DNA of 62,514 nucleotides, taken from positions 1-62,514 of the forward strand of contig JACQQS010000028.1 in assembly GCA_016206925.1 (NCBI GenBank), given 5' to 3'. The notes under the pieces are model-generated. The model saw only the letters and a program-made list of their open reading frames with translations. It made no database searches and was not told the origin of the DNA. The translations under genes were made by a program, and so were the position numbers. Below are positions 2,199 to 55,793 of this stretch, one piece after another; position 1 is the stretch's first letter; each line of letters opens with the position of its first letter. This stretch comes from Candidatus Omnitrophota bacterium. GTDB lineage: Bacteria > Omnitrophota > Omnitrophia > Omnitrophales > JACQQS01.

Positions 2199-2447
2199 AT
2201 GAACATCCAAACGCAAAAAATAGAAGACATTCGTAAAAGGTACGACCATGAGTGGTTGCTCATCGCTGTAGATCAAATGAATGAAGCAACATCAACTCCT
2301 CTAACCGGACGTCTCCTTGCCCACAACCCGGATCCTCTGGAAATCCATAAGGTTGCCATGCGGCATGATGGATTTTTGGCAACGATTTATTCCAATGACT
2401 GGCCGGAAGATTTAGCTGCCTGTTTTTATGACCAAATTTCCACTTGA
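2199..2447 (+). CDS. small protein, DUF5678-like partner of aspartyl protease
   Basis: 82 aa, IRKRYDHEWLLIAV...GRLLAH; overlaps the protease start. Confidence 0.7.
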   Translation: MNIQTQKIEDIRKRYDHEWLLIAVDQMNEATSTPLTGRLLAHNPDPLEIHKVAMRHDGFLATIYSNDWPEDLAACFYDQIST

Positions 2448-2829
2448 CCTGGCTTCGCAGGTCATTTTGGTAAACGTGACTCTTACAGGGCCTGTTCGTT
2501 TGCACAATATCTATCTCATCCTCGATACCGGTGCAACGTTCACAATGATCTCTCCCGAAATTCTCCTGAGAATAGGTCTCGATCCGACGAAAAGCGAGAA
2601 ACGCCGCACGATATGCACAGCAAGCGGGATCGAATACGTCCCCTTTCTCACAGTTCCTTCCATTAAAGCGATAGGCGCCGAGCGGAAAAATATCGAAGTT
2701 TGTGCCCATACACTCCCGCCCAACATTCCGGCTCGAGGACTTCTCGGTCTCAATTTTCTCCGCCATTTCAATATCCCTCTCAATTTCTTGGACAATCATA
2801 TTGGTACTACATGCAAGGAAATTAACTAA
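2428..2829 (+). CDS. retropepsin-like (clan AA) aspartyl protease
   Basis: ILDTGAT catalytic motif and GLLGLNFL. Confidence 0.85.
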   Translation: MTKFPLDLASQVILVNVTLTGPVRLHNIYLILDTGATFTMISPEILLRIGLDPTKSEKRRTICTASGIEYVPFLTVPSIKAIGAERKNIEVCAHTLPPNIPARGLLGLNFLRHFNIPLNFLDNHIGTTCKEIN

Positions 2830-8718: not shown

Positions 8719-9760
8719 GCACCACTCCTGAGTCCCCGTACGGGATTAAATTCCCTTCGCCAAATTTCGGAATACCAGAATGCGCCCGAGCAAATACTCT
8801 GTCTTGCAAATAGTAAATACAACTCATCAAAACACCCCAAATCCCTCCGACAATCCCGGCGCAAGCCGCCGGCAGATATTTGAAGCTTTCATGATTAACC
8901 CGGGGCGACTTAAGGCTTCCGCCAAAAACTCGTCTGAAACAAGTAAGTAAAGGCTTGCTTAAACCTATTTTGACCATGGTCTTTCGAAATAATCCAAAAT
9001 GCTTTGCGTAAAGCCACACCGTGTTTCTCCAAACATAAAACTCAGACCTTAGGTTGAATTCCGACCTAGGTATATCAGGACGTTCCTCTGCGCGGTGGCA
9101 AACCACAGCCTTCGGTTCGAAAATTACCTTAAAGCCCATTCTCCTCACCCAGAGGCATATATCGTCTTCAACGCGGCAATTTTGCCCTCTAAATCTATGA
9201 TCAAAATAATTCATTTGTTCGAGCAAATTTCGTCTCACCGACATATTGCAACCCCGCAAAATATCCACTTCACGGCTCAGCTCAGGATCTAAATAAAGGT
9301 TACTCATAATGTCTCCGCTCGAAGAAAGAAGACCAATGGGCGCACCATCTTCTTTCTTATCAACTCTTTTATTATCCCAATTTTTTGGCAGCACTCTTCC
9401 TCCAACAGCTCCAATCTTTTGGTCGTTGTATAAAGTTTCTATGCGCTCAAGCCAAGCTGGGAAAACTATGGAGTCGTCATCAAGCATCGCAATAATTTTT
9501 CCTCGACACTGGCGCGCACCGAAAGAATACGATTGCGGTCTTGTTCCAAGAGGAAGCGAGATGCGAAAATATCGAGCCCAAGAAAACTTGCTCATGATAT
9601 TCTCCGTGTCCCTGGCCGGAGAAGAATCCACCACAACAACCTCATGTCTATTAAAATCCAATTGAGGATGGAGCGCTTCCAGACATTCACCGACCACGTA
9701 GTGCCGATCGCGTGTAATGATTAAAATGGAAATATTAACGTTTGTTTCAGCCACTGTCAT
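8696..9760 (-). CDS. GT2 glycosyltransferase
   Basis: ISILIIT, LDDD, GCNMS, EDD. Confidence 0.85.
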   Translation of the reverse strand: MTVAETNVNISILIITRDRHYVVGECLEALHPQLDFNRHEVVVVDSSPARDTENIMSKFSWARYFRISLPLGTRPQSYSFGARQCRGKIIAMLDDDSIVFPAWLERIETLYNDQKIGAVGGRVLPKNWDNKRVDKKEDGAPIGLLSSSGDIMSNLYLDPELSREVDILRGCNMSVRRNLLEQMNYFDHRFRGQNCRVEDDICLWVRRMGFKVIFEPKAVVCHRAEERPDIPRSEFNLRSEFYVWRNTVWLYAKHFGLFRKTMVKIGLSKPLLTCFRRVFGGSLKSPRVNHESFKYLPAACAGIVGGIWGVLMSCIYYLQDRVFARAHSGIPKFGEGNLIPYGDSGVVREYSINR

Positions 9761-10694
9761 CCTGTCCTCTACATTGTTTTCTAAGGCCATTTAGATAACC
9801 AAATGCCTCGAAAATCTTTAGCTCATCCAAAAAAGCTCGGCGTTCGCACCGAAGCAGCTTATTCATAATCCAGTTTGGGACAGCGCACAGATACTCTTTT
9901 AAACGCCACACAGGGATTCCTAAAAGTGTGCGATAACCTTTCCCTCGATCCCGCTTTGCCAAAACCATAGTCTCTCCAGACCTGAAATGAAATTTTCGGA
10001 AATAATCTTTATTTGTTCGATCCCGATCGACCCTATGGTAAACAATGACATTAGGATCATAAATCAAACGAAAGCCCTGCGATAAAGCACGCTTACAAAA
10101 TTCCGTATCTTCGTTACCAAGCAAAAGTTTTCCTCTTCTGCCAAGATCCGTTCGGAAATTTCCGATTTTTTCAAATACCGATTTACGAAAAGCCATGTTC
10201 GCTCCATAATACGGCCTGTCAAAATCAAGATTAAATGATTCGTTTCCATAATCAATCAAAGCCAAATTTGGATAAAGTTCCTCTGAAAGCCAATCTGCCG
10301 GATCGACCATCCATCGAGGGAAAATTTTCCCGCCCACCCCATCAACACTTTGTGTTTGAAACGAAGCATTCATCGCCGAAACCCAATTATCCGGCACCAT
10401 TACATCATCATCGGTAAACAAAAGTATCCCGCCCTTAGCCGCGCCAATGGCTTGATTCAAGGCATAGGACTTCCCCAAATGGGCCTCAAAAAAATACCTA
10501 ATTTTTCCACCGCTATTCTCCGCATAATTTTGAGCGAGCTGCCCGGTCTGGTCTGTCGAAGCATTGTTAACGACAATCACTTCATATAGCCCCGAAAAAT
10601 CTTGGTTAAGCAGTGCTATAAGGCAACGATCCAACAATGACGCACGATTATGCGTACAAACAATAACTGAATACAGGCTCAAATTTGTCATCAT
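9747..10694 (-). CDS. GT2 glycosyltransferase
   Basis: SVIVCTHNR, FTDDD, GANMAFR, EDTE. Confidence 0.9.
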   Translation of the reverse strand: MMTNLSLYSVIVCTHNRASLLDRCLIALLNQDFSGLYEVIVVNNASTDQTGQLAQNYAENSGGKIRYFFEAHLGKSYALNQAIGAAKGGILLFTDDDVMVPDNWVSAMNASFQTQSVDGVGGKIFPRWMVDPADWLSEELYPNLALIDYGNESFNLDFDRPYYGANMAFRKSVFEKIGNFRTDLGRRGKLLLGNEDTEFCKRALSQGFRLIYDPNVIVYHRVDRDRTNKDYFRKFHFRSGETMVLAKRDRGKGYRTLLGIPVWRLKEYLCAVPNWIMNKLLRCERRAFLDELKIFEAFGYLNGLRKQCRGQDDSG

Positions 10695-11687
10695 TTACCG
10701 AATATGGTCCTCAGCCTCAGATGTTGCTCCGGCCTCCGCTAGACATCCAACAAGCCTGCTCCAAAATGCCATAATGCCGGTGTAAAAAATTGCCAAATAC
10801 GGCTTCAAAAATCTATAGATGAAAACCTCGGATTTACTCCATCGAATACTGAAGCCGACATTTACATCACTAACAACTGCCTTACAAAAATATTTGAAAG
10901 CTATTCCCCAATCGCTCGCGTCAAGAGCACTGGAAGCTCTAAAATAATTAAACTTAGCATGATTTCTTGAAGCGATACGCTTAATAGGTCTCGGCAAAGG
11001 TTCGGCTAACAACATCTTATAAATCTGAATTGCATTAAGGTATCTCGCATCCAAATTGCTACTCGTACTCATCCCATGACGTCTATACTGCCCGACGATC
11101 TCCGGCAAAAAATCCATAGTAAAGAACCTGCTAATTCTCAGCCACATCTCATAATCGTCAGACCCTTTCAAGTCTATCCTGAATGTTCCAACCGTATCGA
11201 AACACTTCTTCCTTACAAGAACAGAATTAGGCTGAATTACACAATCGGCTACAAGACCTTCGAAATTCTTCACAGGATTATCCGGCCACGTTCTAATAAA
11301 TTTCTTATTCTCATCAACCATATCAACATATGAATAGACCATTCCAATTTTTGGATTCTTGTCTAAGAAGCAAACTTGTGATTCAATCTTTTTCGGATAA
11401 TAAAGGTCATCATCATCTAAGAAAGCGACGTAATCTCCCGAAACATAGGAAATCGCGCGGGCGCGAGCAGCCGAAATGCCGATGTTGTCTTGGAAAAAAT
11501 AACGTATTCTATTGTCTTCTTTTACAAATGATTTCACCAACATGGCCGTCTTATCGTCTGAACCATTATCAAATATCAGCAGTTCCCAATCTTCAAAGGT
11601 TTGTGACGCAACGCTCTCAATCGCTTCCTGTAAATAAGAGGGGCGATTGTGCGTCACAAGAACAATACTGACTTTTGGACTACTCAT
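10695..11687 (-). CDS. GT2 glycosyltransferase
   Basis: VSIVLVTHNR, FLDDDD, DDYEMWLR. Confidence 0.9.
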   Translation of the reverse strand: MSSPKVSIVLVTHNRPSYLQEAIESVASQTFEDWELLIFDNGSDDKTAMLVKSFVKEDNRIRYFFQDNIGISAARARAISYVSGDYVAFLDDDDLYYPKKIESQVCFLDKNPKIGMVYSYVDMVDENKKFIRTWPDNPVKNFEGLVADCVIQPNSVLVRKKCFDTVGTFRIDLKGSDDYEMWLRISRFFTMDFLPEIVGQYRRHGMSTSSNLDARYLNAIQIYKMLLAEPLPRPIKRIASRNHAKFNYFRASSALDASDWGIAFKYFCKAVVSDVNVGFSIRWSKSEVFIYRFLKPYLAIFYTGIMAFWSRLVGCLAEAGATSEAEDHIR

Positions 11688-18317: not shown

Positions 18318-19655
18318 CTAGATTCTTACGACGATTTTCCGGGAGTCGGAAAAGGGCCGTGTGGCGTTCCGGGTGTCGAGAATGAGAGCTGCGTGCTTTA
18401 AGATGAACTCGTAATCAAAGCATTTGTGGTTGGTAAGGATGATAGAAAGATCGCTCTCTTCAAGCGCGCTTTGAAACGCACCGTTTTTGGCCTGAGTGGA
18501 AATAGAGCGCCAGGCCTTATCATGCAGACGGACTTCGGGCACGTAGGGATCGGCAAATGAAACTTCCGCACCGCCTTTTTCGAGAAGCTCAATCACTTCA
18601 AGGGCCGGCGACTCGCGTATGTCGTCGATATTGGCTTTGTAGGTGACGCCCAGAACGAGAATTTTCGCGCCATTCAGCGCTTTCTTTTTTTCGTTTAGTA
18701 TCGCGCGTGATTTCTCCACCACAAATTCCGGCATGCTGGCGTTTACCTCACTCGCCAGTTCAATAAAGCGCGGGCTGAATCCGTGAATACGCGCTTTCCA
18801 GGCGAGGTAATGCGGATCGATGGGAATGCAGTGCCCGCCGAGGCCCGGTCCCGGATAAAAAGGCATGAATCCAAACGGCTTGGTTGCTGCCGCATCGATG
18901 ATTTCCCAAATATCCACGCCGAGCTTTGCGCTCATTTTACACAGTTCATTTACCAGACCGATATTCACGCTGCGGAATGTATTCTCGAGAAGCTTTACCA
19001 TTTCCGCCGCGCTACAGGAGGAAACGGAATGAACTTTCTCGATGGCAAGTTTGTAGAACTCTACCGCCAAGCGGGTGCATTCCTCGGTAACGCCACCGAC
19101 GACTTTGGGGATGTTTTTGGTGTTGTAAACAGGATTGCCCGGATCCACGCGCTCGGGCGAGAATGCCAGGAACACATCCTTGCCCACTTTAAATCCCTTT
19201 TCTTCTATCATGGGCAGAATAACTTCTTCGGTGGTCCCGGGATAGGTCGTGCTTTCAAGAATAACGAGCATGCCTTCGTGCAGGTACTTCACGATTTCCT
19301 GCGTGGCATTCACAATATAGGAGATGTCCGGATCCTTTGATTTCCGGAGTGGCGTGGGCACGCAGATGTTCACGGTGTCGAGATTACGTATTATCGAAAA
19401 GTCAGTTGTGGCGCGAAGCTTTTTTTGACTCACAAGATCGCTGAAGAGCTTCCCGTCCACATCCTGGATGTAACATTCCTTACGGTTAATGGCATCGACC
19501 TTGCGCGAATCGATATCGATACCGACCGTCTCTACGCCCGCACGCGCAAATTCCACCGCAAGCGGCAGGCCAACGTAACCCAGACCAATGACCCCGGCGC
19601 GAACTTGTCGGGTTGCGATCTTTTCCTCAATGGTCACGGTAACTTGTGCATCCAT
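18318..19655 (-). CDS. nucleotide-sugar dehydrogenase (UDP-Glc/UDP-GlcNAc 6-DH family)
   Basis: GLGYVGLP, CVPTP, ESTTYPGTT, GGHCIPIDP, DIRESP. Confidence 0.95.
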   Translation of the reverse strand: MDAQVTVTIEEKIATRQVRAGVIGLGYVGLPLAVEFARAGVETVGIDIDSRKVDAINRKECYIQDVDGKLFSDLVSQKKLRATTDFSIIRNLDTVNICVPTPLRKSKDPDISYIVNATQEIVKYLHEGMLVILESTTYPGTTEEVILPMIEEKGFKVGKDVFLAFSPERVDPGNPVYNTKNIPKVVGGVTEECTRLAVEFYKLAIEKVHSVSSCSAAEMVKLLENTFRSVNIGLVNELCKMSAKLGVDIWEIIDAAATKPFGFMPFYPGPGLGGHCIPIDPHYLAWKARIHGFSPRFIELASEVNASMPEFVVEKSRAILNEKKKALNGAKILVLGVTYKANIDDIRESPALEVIELLEKGGAEVSFADPYVPEVRLHDKAWRSISTQAKNGAFQSALEESDLSIILTNHKCFDYEFILKHAALILDTRNATRPFSDSRKIVVRI

Positions 19656-19678
19656 TTATCTCTCCTTTCAGAAACGAG

Positions 19679-19707
19679 GTAACGGTGTATCGGAGTGTCG
19701 GAGTAAC
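19679..19707. repeat. octamer array, inverted copy of 20173-20212
   Basis: reverse complement GTTACTCCGACACTCCGATACACCGTTAC. Confidence 0.75.
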
Positions 19708-19721
19708 AAAAAAACAAAAGA

Positions 19722-20141
19722 TTACGTGGCTCTGATCAACCATTTCTCCGCGCTATCAATCATTAAAACAATCTGTGAAATTATCCGATCACATTTTTGA
19801 TCAAATCGTGACGCCTCATCGGCTGGCACATAACCGCACCGACGTGCTATTTCGATCCATACCTGCGTCTCACAAGCTTCTGATTCAGCGTCGCTCAACT
19901 TGCTAATGAAGGCAGCTTTGTATCTTCTTTTTCGCCAAGCTTCTGCGATATTGCCGCACACCGAGCGTGATGATCTTCTAATTTGGTCGGTCAACGAATA
20001 CCGCTCTTCTTTCGGAAAGCCCCTGCTGCAATCAAAAATCTCCATCGCCAAGTTCATCGCACCGATGAACACGTCCAGCTCTTTGAAATTCGTTACGTAC
20101 GCTCTCGCTTTCTTGCTTTCTTTCTCTATCAGTTCCGGCAT
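19722..20141 (-). CDS. four helix bundle protein (23S rRNA IVP family)
   Basis: FKELDV, FPKEERYSLTDQIRRSSRSVCGNIAEAW, SEACETQVW. Confidence 0.9.
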   Translation of the reverse strand: MPELIEKESKKARAYVTNFKELDVFIGAMNLAMEIFDCSRGFPKEERYSLTDQIRRSSRSVCGNIAEAWRKRRYKAAFISKLSDAESEACETQVWIEIARRCGYVPADEASRFDQKCDRIISQIVLMIDSAEKWLIRAT

Positions 20142-20172
20142 TTTCCATTCCCAGTTACCCCGCCACTCACTC

Positions 20173-20212
20173 ACTCCGATACTCCGTTACTCCGTTACTC
20201 CATTACTCCCTC
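20173..20212. repeat. octamer tandem array (ACTCCGTT)
   Basis: ACTCCGAT ACTCCGTT ACTCCGTT ACTCCATT ACTCCCTC. Confidence 0.85.
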
Positions 20213-20238
20213 TCGCTCTTCCGCCGTTTCACCCATAC

Positions 20239-22077
20239 TCACTCCACGGTGACGCTTTTCGCGAGGTTCCGCGGTTGATCGACATCCGTTCCGCGGAGCG
20301 TCGCCACATAATAGGCAAGATACTGCAAAGGCAGAACGCTTAGAAAGGGCGACAAAAATTCGCTCGTTTCCGGAATGTAAATCACGTCATCAGCCAGCCT
20401 TTCAATCGCCGTATTCCCTTCTGTTGTGACAACAATAAGCTTTCCGGACCGGGCCTTCACTTCCTGAATATTTGAAACCATCTTTTCGTACACGGACGAC
20501 TCGGGCATGATGGCCACGACCGGCATGTTTTCATCGATGAGCGCAATGGGACCGTGCTTCATTTCGCCGGCCGGATGCCCCGTCGCATGAATGTAGGCAA
20601 TTTCCTTGATCTTCAGCGCACCTTCGTGTGCGTTCGGATAGTTAATGCCCCGCGCCAGGAATAGAAAATCGCGGGCCTGGAAATATTTCTCGGCGATTTC
20701 CAGTACCCGGTCCTTGGCTGAGATAATCTTCCGCATTTTATCCGGCAGCTCCCGGAATTCATCGGCCAGTCTTCTGTAAGTGCCTTCGTTGACGGAGCCG
20801 CGTTCGCGCGCCCACCAAAGGCTGAGTGCAAACAAGACCCCGAGCTGGGCCGTATAGGCTTTCGTGGAAGCCACGCCGATTTCAGGGCCTGCATGCGTGT
20901 AAATAACCGCGTCGGATTCACGCGTAACCGTACTGCCGAGCACATTGCAAATGGAAAGCGCCTTAAAGCCGCTCTGCTTCGCGTGGCGCAGGCCCATCAG
21001 CGTATCGATCGTCTCGCCCGATTGCGTGATGGAGAGAAGTAATTCTTTTTTTTGAGGAATGAGTTTGCGGTAGCGAAATTCGGAAGACACATCGACTTCC
21101 GCCGGAATGCCGGACAGGCTCTCAAAGAAAAACTTTCCGGTAAGCGCTGCGTGCCATGACGTACCGCAGGCTTGTATCACGACGCGCTCGACTTTTTTTA
21201 ACTGCGAAACGTCAAACCGCAACACGTCGAAAAGTTTGGGTTCCCCGCCATTTTCAAAACGCATACGGAAAAGACGATCGATAACAGCGGGCTGCTCCTC
21301 AATTTCCTTGAGCATAAAGTGCTCAAAACCTTCCTTGCTGACATCCTTCGCGTCCCAATCGATGCGCACCACTTTTTCTCTGATGCGTTCCCCGGCGTTG
21401 GAGGTGATCTTAACCTCATCCCTTGATACAACCGCCATTTGGTAATCCTCAAGAAAAACGGCATTTCGGGTAAAATCAACGATGGCCGGAGCATCGGAAG
21501 CGACAAAATTCTCTCCGTTGCCGAGGCCCACCACAAGCGGGCTCCCATTTCTGGCCGCTATAAAAACATTTTCTTCACGGCTGCTGACGACACAGAAGGC
21601 ATAACTGCCCTTGATTTCACCGATGGTCCTCCGGACAGATTCCTCCAATCCACAGCCCTGGATTACATGAAATCGCTCGATGAGGTGCGCCAGCACTTCG
21701 GTGTCGGTGTCCGAAGTAAACTTGTGCCCCTCCCGGATTAAATGCGATTTTAATGTATCGTGGTTTTCAATGATGCCGTTATGAACGATGGCCACCGTGT
21801 TTGTGCAATCAGAATGCGGATGGGCGTTTCGTTCGGACGGCTCGCCGTGCGTCGCCCAGCGCGTATGGCCGATGCCGAGCGTTCCTGCAACCGGATTTTC
21901 CTTGACACGCATGACGAGGCGCGTAAGTTTCCCGGGCTCTTTCAAAATCGAAAGGGTTCCTTGATTTACCGTCGCGAGTCCGGCCGAGTCGTAGCCGCGG
22001 TATTCAAGGCGCGACAACGCTTTCAAGAGAACTGTGTCGATTTTCCTGCTGCCAATGTAACCTACAATTCCGCACAT
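20239..22077 (-). CDS. glmS: glutamine--fructose-6-phosphate transaminase
   Basis: MCGIVG, GHTRWATHG, QSGET, PRNLAKSVTVE. Confidence 0.97.
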   Translation of the reverse strand: MCGIVGYIGSRKIDTVLLKALSRLEYRGYDSAGLATVNQGTLSILKEPGKLTRLVMRVKENPVAGTLGIGHTRWATHGEPSERNAHPHSDCTNTVAIVHNGIIENHDTLKSHLIREGHKFTSDTDTEVLAHLIERFHVIQGCGLEESVRRTIGEIKGSYAFCVVSSREENVFIAARNGSPLVVGLGNGENFVASDAPAIVDFTRNAVFLEDYQMAVVSRDEVKITSNAGERIREKVVRIDWDAKDVSKEGFEHFMLKEIEEQPAVIDRLFRMRFENGGEPKLFDVLRFDVSQLKKVERVVIQACGTSWHAALTGKFFFESLSGIPAEVDVSSEFRYRKLIPQKKELLLSITQSGETIDTLMGLRHAKQSGFKALSICNVLGSTVTRESDAVIYTHAGPEIGVASTKAYTAQLGVLFALSLWWARERGSVNEGTYRRLADEFRELPDKMRKIISAKDRVLEIAEKYFQARDFLFLARGINYPNAHEGALKIKEIAYIHATGHPAGEMKHGPIALIDENMPVVAIMPESSVYEKMVSNIQEVKARSGKLIVVTTEGNTAIERLADDVIYIPETSEFLSPFLSVLPLQYLAYYVATLRGTDVDQPRNLAKSVTVE

Positions 22078-22168
22078 AAGAATAAATCCCTTTCGTACTA
22101 TGCAATCAAAATAGCTAGATAAGGCACAAGCGCCGACGGGGCAACCGGTTAAAGCGTGCAAGCCAAAT

Positions 22169-37945: not shown

Positions 37946-38171
37946 CGATTTACCCTCCTTTTGCTTGAAGGGCAAATCGTTTTTACCGATCTTTACATGA
38001 GACGATTCCTTTGGGAAGGAAACGCTCGTAACCCGATAGTTGTTAAAATGAATTCCTAAGTTTGGAAGTATTATATCCAAAGAAAGCAAATTTTTCGATA
38101 CCTAAGTTAATTTCCCAGCGCGCAAATTTCCCCGCGCGCAAGATTCGGAACGCAAGCGGCTGAGCGTATAG

Positions 38172-55666: not shown

Positions 55667-55793
55667 GTAGCCGGTTGTTCAAGCGGCGGTCGGGCGCTCG
55701 GTCCGACGGCACCGCGCGGTCGGCGCGGCGAACGGTCGGTTCGGCGCACGGTCGGCGCGGCGGGAATGACGCGGGGCGAGACGCCCCGCCTAC
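55667..55793. repeat. GTAG REP with nested 60-bp unit (55671-55730) plus two extra 16-bp terminal copies
   Basis: GTAG[60 bp][AACGGTCGGTTCGGCG][CACGGTCGGCGCGGCG]GGAATGAC-GCGGGGCGAGACGCCCCGCCTAC. Confidence 0.85.

Follow-up and report, generated by a model that had tools for sequence, protein, structure and literature searches.

The closest described counterparts of the element analysed here, a four-helix-bundle (4HB) gene enclosed by inverted octamer arrays at positions 19679-20212 of a 62,514-nt stretch of Candidatus Omnitrophota DNA (contig JACQQS010000028.1; this whole stretch is the window throughout), are the intervening sequences (IVSs) of 23S rRNA that bear an open reading frame (ORF). 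In Coxiella, according to the consulted parts of PMC4990558, the IVS carries a homologous ORF, which is decaying and probably untranslated, and its termini pair into a 28-bp stem; ahead of the start codon stand two to three tandem GACAGAT heptamers and a degenerate one, varying in number by strain, and RNase III cleaves inside that stem, where the first repeat begins. The same parts of this source relate that IVSs replace small tetraloops of rRNA helices, and that the ORF-bearing element has long been suspected to be selfish or mobile. The protein family concerned, PF05635, is characterised by the motif G..R...S...N..E and is also found between cas genes (PMC3936711), as well as in rRNA insertions of candidate phyla radiation (CPR) bacteria (preprint 10.1101/2024.02.27.582315), while Avd, the accessory protein of diversity-generating retroelements (DGRs), and PF05635 are treated as homologous four-helix bundles in the consulted part of PMC10053308.

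The window element resembles the 23S IVSs of Leptospira, Coxiella and others, which RNase III excises, in its PF05635 ORF, in its enclosing complementary termini and in its size (about 430-530 nt for such elements), and likewise has tandem units directly before the ORF, which in the IVSs are heptamers of varying copy number. Unlike them, it lies between protein-coding genes and not in helix 9, 25 or 45, and unlike the Coxiella IVS it is built on an octamer and has an ORF that looks intact. Because it lies outside rRNA it is not classed as a 23S IVS, and is a variant on the IVS plan. A previous reading made from the letters alone (the sequence-only reading) had called it an IVS-like element in an mRNA. 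As architecture this is well supported, since the Coxiella IVS has heptamers before a homologous ORF and an RNase III cut at the first repeat. We hold it to be moderately probable that window 19679-20212 is an insertion cassette on the plan of ORF-bearing 23S rRNA IVSs, situated in the spacer of a co-directional gene pair. The minus-strand junction from glmS to the dehydrogenase measures 583 nt and encloses the family gene, with the following parts.

20165..20212, minus strand: arm on the 5' side of the gene; six octamers in tandem, of GGAGTAAC type when read as sense
19722..20141, minus strand: 4HB gene, 139 aa, ATG at 20141-20139, stop TAA at 19724-19722
19679..19707, minus strand: arm on the 3' side, reverse-complementary to the 5' array, with about 3.6 units of greater degeneracy
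19656..19678, minus strand: spacer of 23 nt directly 3' of the 3' arm, containing AAAGGAGAG, a Shine-Dalgarno-like sequence of the dehydrogenase gene; the predicted fold leaves the spacer unpaired
20239..22161, minus strand: upstream host gene, glmS-like (GATase + SIS domains by Pfam), C-terminal ...VTVE and stop
18318..19655, minus strand: downstream host gene, UDP-glucose/GDP-mannose dehydrogenase family, three-domain Pfam match

Pfam assigns both neighbours as the sequence-only reading had done, and the octamer array that it placed upstream of the gene and the reverse-complement array downstream are recovered as six and about 3.6 units. On the plus strand the octamers at 20165-20212 run ACTCACTC, ACTCCGAT, ACTCCGTT twice, ACTCCATT and ACTCCCTC, Tandem Repeats Finder reporting 20173-20209 (period 8, 4.6 copies, 93% matches, score 60), and the plus-strand letters of 19679-19707 are GTAAC GGTGTATC GGAGTGTC GGAGTAAC. 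On the minus strand 26 nt separate glmS from the octamers and 23 nt the octamers from the ORF, and the ORF stop is followed by a 14-nt U-rich spacer up to the 3' arm. No match to a sigma-70-type promoter or to an intrinsic terminator was found in window 19500-20400, and an Rfam scan of the window returned no family at its gathering score. By eye, the only candidate for a target-site duplication is a short GAGAG that occurs on either side, not equally far from the two arms.

The arms are strongly complementary. An inverted-repeat search delimits 35-nt arms, 80% complementary and separated by 460-468 nt; local alignment of the flanks (120 nt upstream against the reverse complement of 113 nt downstream) scores 37, a value reached by none of 200 shuffles, and the predicted arm-arm RNA duplex on the sense strand has an energy of -46.7 kcal/mol, compared with -26.6 +/- 4.4 for shuffles, none of 300 being as low. 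Both results uphold the proposal that the arrays are able to form a stem around the gene, and when a 596-nt stretch is folded, the minimum-energy structure and the centroid alike contain this terminal stem. Lone octamers are not enriched in the window (44 with at most one mismatch, 42.8 expected), and the signal is one of octamer clustering and inverted pairing, not of octamer number.

That the cassette is an insertion is apparent from relatives. The dehydrogenase was searched in 40 genomes of the same order, and the loci of 19 relatives were examined for glmS by tblastn; only two of these gave a glmS match directly upstream. In one (G033, L176) the glmS TGA is separated by 7 nt from the dehydrogenase ATG, in the other (G024, L177) the spacer is 50 nt, and both spacers are free of repeats and of an extra gene. 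Because the two genes are only 7 or 50 nt apart in these relatives, the cassette is an insertion. The earlier description of a self-contained cassette is upheld.

Judged by profile matches, the gene product is a member of PF05635/TIGR02436 distantly related to Avd. PF05635 (23S_rRNA_IVP) is matched at 5.9e-30 and 104.1 bits (cut-off 33.8) over profile positions 1-104 of 106, TIGR02436 (four helix bundle protein) at 2.2e-29 and 101.8 bits (cut-off 24) over positions 5-107 of 109, and the solved pentamer structure PDB 2gsc (XCC0516, a four-helix bundle from Xanthomonas by its PDB title) at E 1.7e-10. The protein has the invariant Q53, N64, E67 and E91 of alignment A1 together with the near-invariant R56 and S60. 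Matches to Avd are weak (Pfam bAvd 5.5e-5, PHROG Avd 9.9e-9, NCBIfam Avd 4e-4) and lie under the curated cut-offs (20.7 against 80 bits for NF033474, 24 against 40 bits), so that a distant sequence relationship to the Avd of DGRs is what these profiles indicate; the statement that the family takes its name from 23S rRNA IVSs and is distantly related to Avd accords with them. An identity as a DGR was rejected, given these scores and no RVT_1 match in the window's genome (G000; 2.0 Mb, 86% complete), in which no DGR template or variable repeats were seen. Family profile searches recognised no catalytic domain in the 4HB protein. By homology it would be a pentameric, Avd-like helical bundle, with nucleic acid as a conceivable target, perhaps the arrays themselves. 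The family is very large, one peptide pattern yielding at least 597 confirmed relatives.

The link between this family and inverted arrays extends well beyond the window. The survey comprised 118 family ORFs in 114 loci, of which 113 were tested and five, with flanks too short, were left out; the family is present in 28 of 41 same-order genomes, that of the window counted. Flank complementarity was reached by none of 200 shuffles in 77 of the 113 genes, and in 70 both arms are tandem-periodic with an equal period (7 in 61 cases, 8 in nine). Paired and periodic arms occur in 4 of 5 genes of the window's own genome, 19 of 29 from the same order and 47 of 79 from other phyla. Controls behave differently: among the ORFs of at least 150 aa in the window's genome one of 1749 passes the flank test, and this is the window's own gene, so that the survey of homologue flanks proposed by the sequence-only reading finds inverted arrays around 70 of 113 homologues and around none of the 1748 remaining long ORFs. 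Upstream flanks set against the downstream flanks of other loci (1500 pairs) have a mean score of 14.5 and a 99th percentile of 26, compared with a median of 28 for true pairs, 64 of the 113 exceeding that percentile. The inverted-array layout is thus a family-wide rule across many phyla, and inverted arrays around most family members turn an rRNA curiosity into a general element. In the literature covered, which did not extend to subscription journals and supplements, we found no report linking the family to flanking inverted arrays outside rRNA.

The arms have medians of 26.5 nt, 88% complementarity and 3.7 units, and their units differ between nearly all array-flanked family genes. In 30 of the 70 no more than 5 nt separate the stop codon from the 3' arm, which often takes in the stop itself. 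For annotation, arrays are a simple signature that marks the true start and stop of family genes and flags frames that run into repeats by accident. Both neighbours are co-directional in 84 of 113 cases by a crude longest-ORF rule. Other settings occur as well: one cassette (L031, 1350-2006) lies between two same-strand tRNA genes and at locus L010 (17-97) another array-flanked family gene follows a same-strand tRNA gene, so that these two sit among structured RNA genes and not in mRNA, while none of 13 loci scanned with Rfam (of the 114) lies in rRNA. In Flavobacteriia, proteins that are 83-86% identical (L095 as compared with L060 and L100) have the same TGTATA-type arms in different spacers, one between MarR-like and 3-hydroxyacyl-CoA-dehydrogenase-like genes, the other flanked by a thiolase-like gene and by one that ends in ...KGKPLRN (all names read from translations). 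Since the arms are kept at different sites, these sequences are evidence that arms and gene travel together as a unit. All three cassettes adjoin apparent fatty-acid beta-oxidation genes, again going by translations.

The window's genome itself encodes five TIGR02436 genes, all bracketed by inverted short-unit arrays and each with a different unit; four of the five pass the flank test, and the fifth (L005) was paired in separate array searches. A further observation concerns L004 (G000:C70, 1444-1689), where a family gene truncated to 82 aa still stands between GTAGCAAG-type inverted arrays; this copy may be decaying into a hairpin that has no ORF.

As an insertion cassette on the IVS plan, the element would be transcribed by read-through from glmS together with its host genes, its own sequence having yielded neither a promoter- nor a terminator-like site. 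Once transcribed, the 3' arm would pair with the 5' array, and the resulting imperfect stem of about 29 bp would loop out the ORF and place the end of glmS close to the dehydrogenase ribosome-binding site. In this way an insertion of about 0.5 kb could sit inside an operon, the stem looping it out and keeping the flanking genes functionally adjacent. By analogy with rRNA IVSs the stem would be a likely RNase III substrate, and its cleavage is plausible because an RNase III gene is present in the genome; no 23S rRNA is assembled there. Tandem arms could pair in several registers and change their unit number by slippage, and the cassette would move, or have moved, as a unit of arms and gene. Two suggested reasons for the form of the arrays were set aside: that units of 7 or 8 nt serve to place stops in three frames is weak (7.4 stop triplets per 100 nt, 6.2 expected, and 19 of 70 arms stopping all frames), and five units for five subunits find no support in a median of 3.7 units per arm. 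Enrichment in G and depletion in C mark the first arm in 54 loci against 13, a bias that says nothing on the strand of the gene, because it is equal on both strands of any inverted repeat; one idea is that such composition may keep a C-rich arm from exposure to Rho.

Several observations weigh against this account. At the level of the RNA, the 70 stems have 223 non-Watson-Crick positions, and of these 52 are G-U and 52 are A-C on the sense strand, which is no sign of selection for pairing in the sense RNA, because such selection should favour G-U over A-C; the parity fits complementarity at the DNA level, or no selection on mismatches. Similarly, in the window the antisense-strand duplex (-43.7 kcal/mol) is nearly equal to that of the sense strand, and the RNA folding check suggested by the sequence-only reading, which did return the terminal stem, gives a whole 596-nt fold that is not unusually stable (z -0.92, equalled by 17 of 100 shuffles). 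At the level of mobility, the five paralogues in the window's genome are only about 25% identical, and their sequences therefore give no sign of recent transposition there. At the level of the family, 36 of 113 genes are without significant arms, including L019, L022 and L024; the 80 survey loci from many phyla are those that best matched a single peptide pattern and do not sample the family at random, and the loci of the survey as a whole are not independent, L035 duplicating L012 and several Flavobacterium loci being orthologous. Finally, arrays also occur apart from the gene: PF05635 has no match at E <= 1 in a relative that has such hairpins (G020, 94% complete), and array density shows no clear relation to family presence in six genomes, being 1.5 (G004), 4.1 (G020) and 1.5 (G026) arrays per 100 kb in family-negative and 6.5 (G034), 1.5 (G032) and 2.5 (G000) in family-positive genomes. 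PF05635 likewise has no match at E <= 1 in G004 or G031. The family genes at L019, L022 and L024 are extended at the N-terminus by 50-70 aa, are not flanked by arrays and are followed by a conserved sequence common to all three, in which Rfam found no RNA family; they look like a different context or subfamily.

The alternative that survives best, although we consider it unlikely, is a DNA-level element comparable to attC sites or to the system of REPINs (hairpin-forming doublets of repetitive extragenic palindromic, REP, sequences) and RAYTs (REP-associated tyrosine transposases), where the arrays would fold as DNA hairpins or cruciforms and be the substrate of copying or recombination, with the 4HB protein as trans factor, encoded once and lying between its cognate repeats, ORF-less hairpins as its non-autonomous derivatives and RNA pairing as a by-product. 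The equality of G-U and A-C is what would be expected from complementarity kept in DNA, and arms track protein relatedness across different sites. The array population of the window's genome points in the same direction: tandem arrays of period 6-9 number 51 (37 heptameric), compared with 1 in the shuffled genome, and for 18 of them an inverted partner above their null exists, several pairs enclosing 30-200 nt with no ORF; for 22 solo arrays a search for partners with G-U allowed found few. ORF-less inverted heptamer-array hairpins of this genome, with loops of 30-200 nt, stand at the following positions, by contig.

C77:41299-41530, ORF-less inverted heptamer-array hairpin
C78:3800-4111, likewise
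C9:9577-9754, likewise
C29:2601-2851, likewise
C29:43421-43654, likewise
C33:13045-13184, likewise
C61:15933-16014, likewise
C70:32801-32908, likewise
C70:61659-61807, likewise

The arrays of this genome form unit families, the GTAAGT-type unit of one family-gene cassette (L001) being common to the ORF-less hairpins on C77 and C78. In a relative (G020; L127, C3) three near-identical ORF-less hairpins at 9396-9514, 10508-10665 and 11340-11460, their arms made of TAGCG-type heptamers around a loop that is conserved and measures about 38 nt, occupy one each of three spacers of an infC-rpmI-rplT-pheS-pheT string. A precedent exists in the REPINs, for which the consulted parts of PMC3337134 and PMC3116915 describe a single-copy RAYT gene flanked by inverted cognate repeats, scattered intergenic ORF-less inverted-repeat hairpins, as here, and mostly vertical inheritance. 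The chemistry of the RAYT, a Y1 transposase, is known, whereas in the 4HB protein no catalytic motif is known and no catalytic domain is recognised; REPs, moreover, are unique palindromes and the present arms tandem arrays. The window octamer array is a singleton among 40 period-7/8 arrays of its genome, and with paralogues at about 25% identity that genome has no near-identical copies of the kind expected of a REPIN or a miniature inverted-repeat transposable element (MITE), whereas the ORF-less G020 hairpins do show them. These same G020 hairpins, found with no PF05635 match in their genome, also tell against a DNA-level element dependent on the 4HB protein, as do the array densities, which in the sample do not track the family, and the loops of 13 ORF-less hairpins, which hold no relic of a 4HB gene (all E > 1).

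A Y1 transposase as the mobiliser of the arrays was considered and rejected, the sole Y1_Tnp-like gene of the window's genome being tied to a REP-like palindrome instead. This separate palindrome, with a CCCGCGAAAGCGGG core, recurs in that genome, one copy overlapping an open frame of 450 aa at its 5' end, a frame that matches Y1_Tnp weakly (28 bits); palindrome and gene may constitute a REPIN/RAYT-type system distinct from the heptamer arrays. Its sites are these.

C83:1858-1916 (L205), REP-like palindrome
C40:1935-1964/2712-2741, further REP-like palindrome site
C3:37895-38330, further REP-like palindrome site
C84:14085-15471, further REP-like palindrome site

Integron cassettes are likewise small and promoterless, and their attC is conserved in structure, as an imperfect inverted repeat, and not in sequence; attC flanks the cassette on a single side and depends on an integrase and an attI platform. 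Unlike these, the present cassettes have arms on both sides, are solitary in operon spacers and have no integrase nearby.

There is also a wider conjecture, to which we attach little probability: that PF05635 genes with inverted arrays would be a widespread and so far unrecognised class of selfish cassettes in operon and tRNA spacers and in rRNA helices across bacteria, with the rRNA IVSs as its rRNA members and the excess of intergenic heptamer repeats (inverted hairpins as well as arrays of STRR type) as its ORF-less derivatives, made or maintained by an Avd-like pentamer that would act in trans on cognate arrays in a REPIN-RAYT-like manner. Independently of this conjecture, the family-wide array layout offers one testable frame for three puzzles, namely the purpose of the IVS ORF, the intergenic excess of heptamers and the function of stand-alone Avd-like proteins.

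A second alternative, which we regard as improbable, reverses the relation between arms and gene: the hairpins would pre-exist in the host, with a function in mRNA stability, processing or translation, the arms would belong to the target, and the 4HB gene would be a selfish gene lodged in their loops. Similar ORF-less hairpins do occur in operon spacers, those of the window's genome mostly directly upstream of a ribosome-binding site and start codon, and each gene copy there has different arms. The replacement of rRNA tetraloops by IVSs, as told in the consulted parts of PMC4990558, would be of the same kind, and intergenic heptamer arrays, inverted pairs included, are described without this gene family in the consulted parts of PMC4692102 and PMC4679880; there the GGGAATC repeats of Xanthomonas form 70-75 convergent inverted pairs per genome capable of stem-loops, and a term search of the two papers yielded no mention of an enclosed gene of this family. 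Against this alternative, both empty glmS-dehydrogenase junctions are without a hairpin; the arms adjoin the start and stop codons directly, leaving no remnant of a loop; where related proteins occupy different sites their arm units are the same; and 0 of 1748 other long ORFs are bracketed likewise.

Less probable still, and already disfavoured by the controls, is that the arrays are simple-sequence or cis-regulatory repeats of a 5' untranslated region (5'-UTR), produced by polymerase slippage and unrelated to the gene, their pairing being coincidental: heptameric simple sequence repeats (SSRs) are indeed over-represented intergenically in bacteria and have a proposed role in translation (consulted parts of PMC4692102 and PMC4679880), and Shine-Dalgarno-like tetramers are frequent in the first arm (36 versus 3, though composition accounts for the excess), but pairing is significant in 77 of 113 family genes and in 0 of 1748 other ORFs, true flanks score a median of 28 where mismatched flanks average 14.5 and reach 26 at the 99th percentile, and the stop triplets of the first arm are barely enriched. 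To the extent that these are described in the sources consulted, the cyanobacterial short tandemly repeated repetitive (STRR) sequences, the TAACTGA repeats of Beggiatoaceae and the GGGAATC repeats are similar to the present arrays in having 7-nt intergenic tandem units, often just upstream of start codons; they differ in that one unit dominates each genome, while here nearly every cassette has its own.

The sequence-only reading had also offered the 4HB product as a possible trans factor for the repeat-bounded cassettes of this locus, and the findings weigh against this. The window contains one other candidate cassette (2014-2960), with a GTAACGG-type heptamer array at 2018-2062 and a CTTGTTA-type array (reverse complement GTAACAA-type) at 2928-2956; it shares only a GTAAC-G core with the 4HB cassette, and its pairing is no better than that of chance partners. 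The claim is further weakened by the heptamer-array hairpins of G020, with no PF05635 match at E <= 1. The predicted duplex of this second cassette has -40.7 kcal/mol on the plus strand (reached by 0 of 300 shuffles) and -25.5 on the minus strand, but partners met by chance in a scan pair just as well as the proposed arm. It encloses two plus-strand ORFs, one of 77 aa (2199-2429) with no family match and one of 133 aa (2428-2829, plus strand) for a gag-type aspartyl protease, both antisense within a minus-strand string of glycosyltransferase and polysaccharide-deacetylase genes. Of seven loci with homologues of the protease, from four other genomes and that of the window, some have arrays nearby and none has a clear inverted pair. 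Elsewhere in the window, tandem repeats of 16-nt period occur at 38109-38141 (2.1 copies, 94% matches) and 55714-55762 (2.9 copies, 83% matches).

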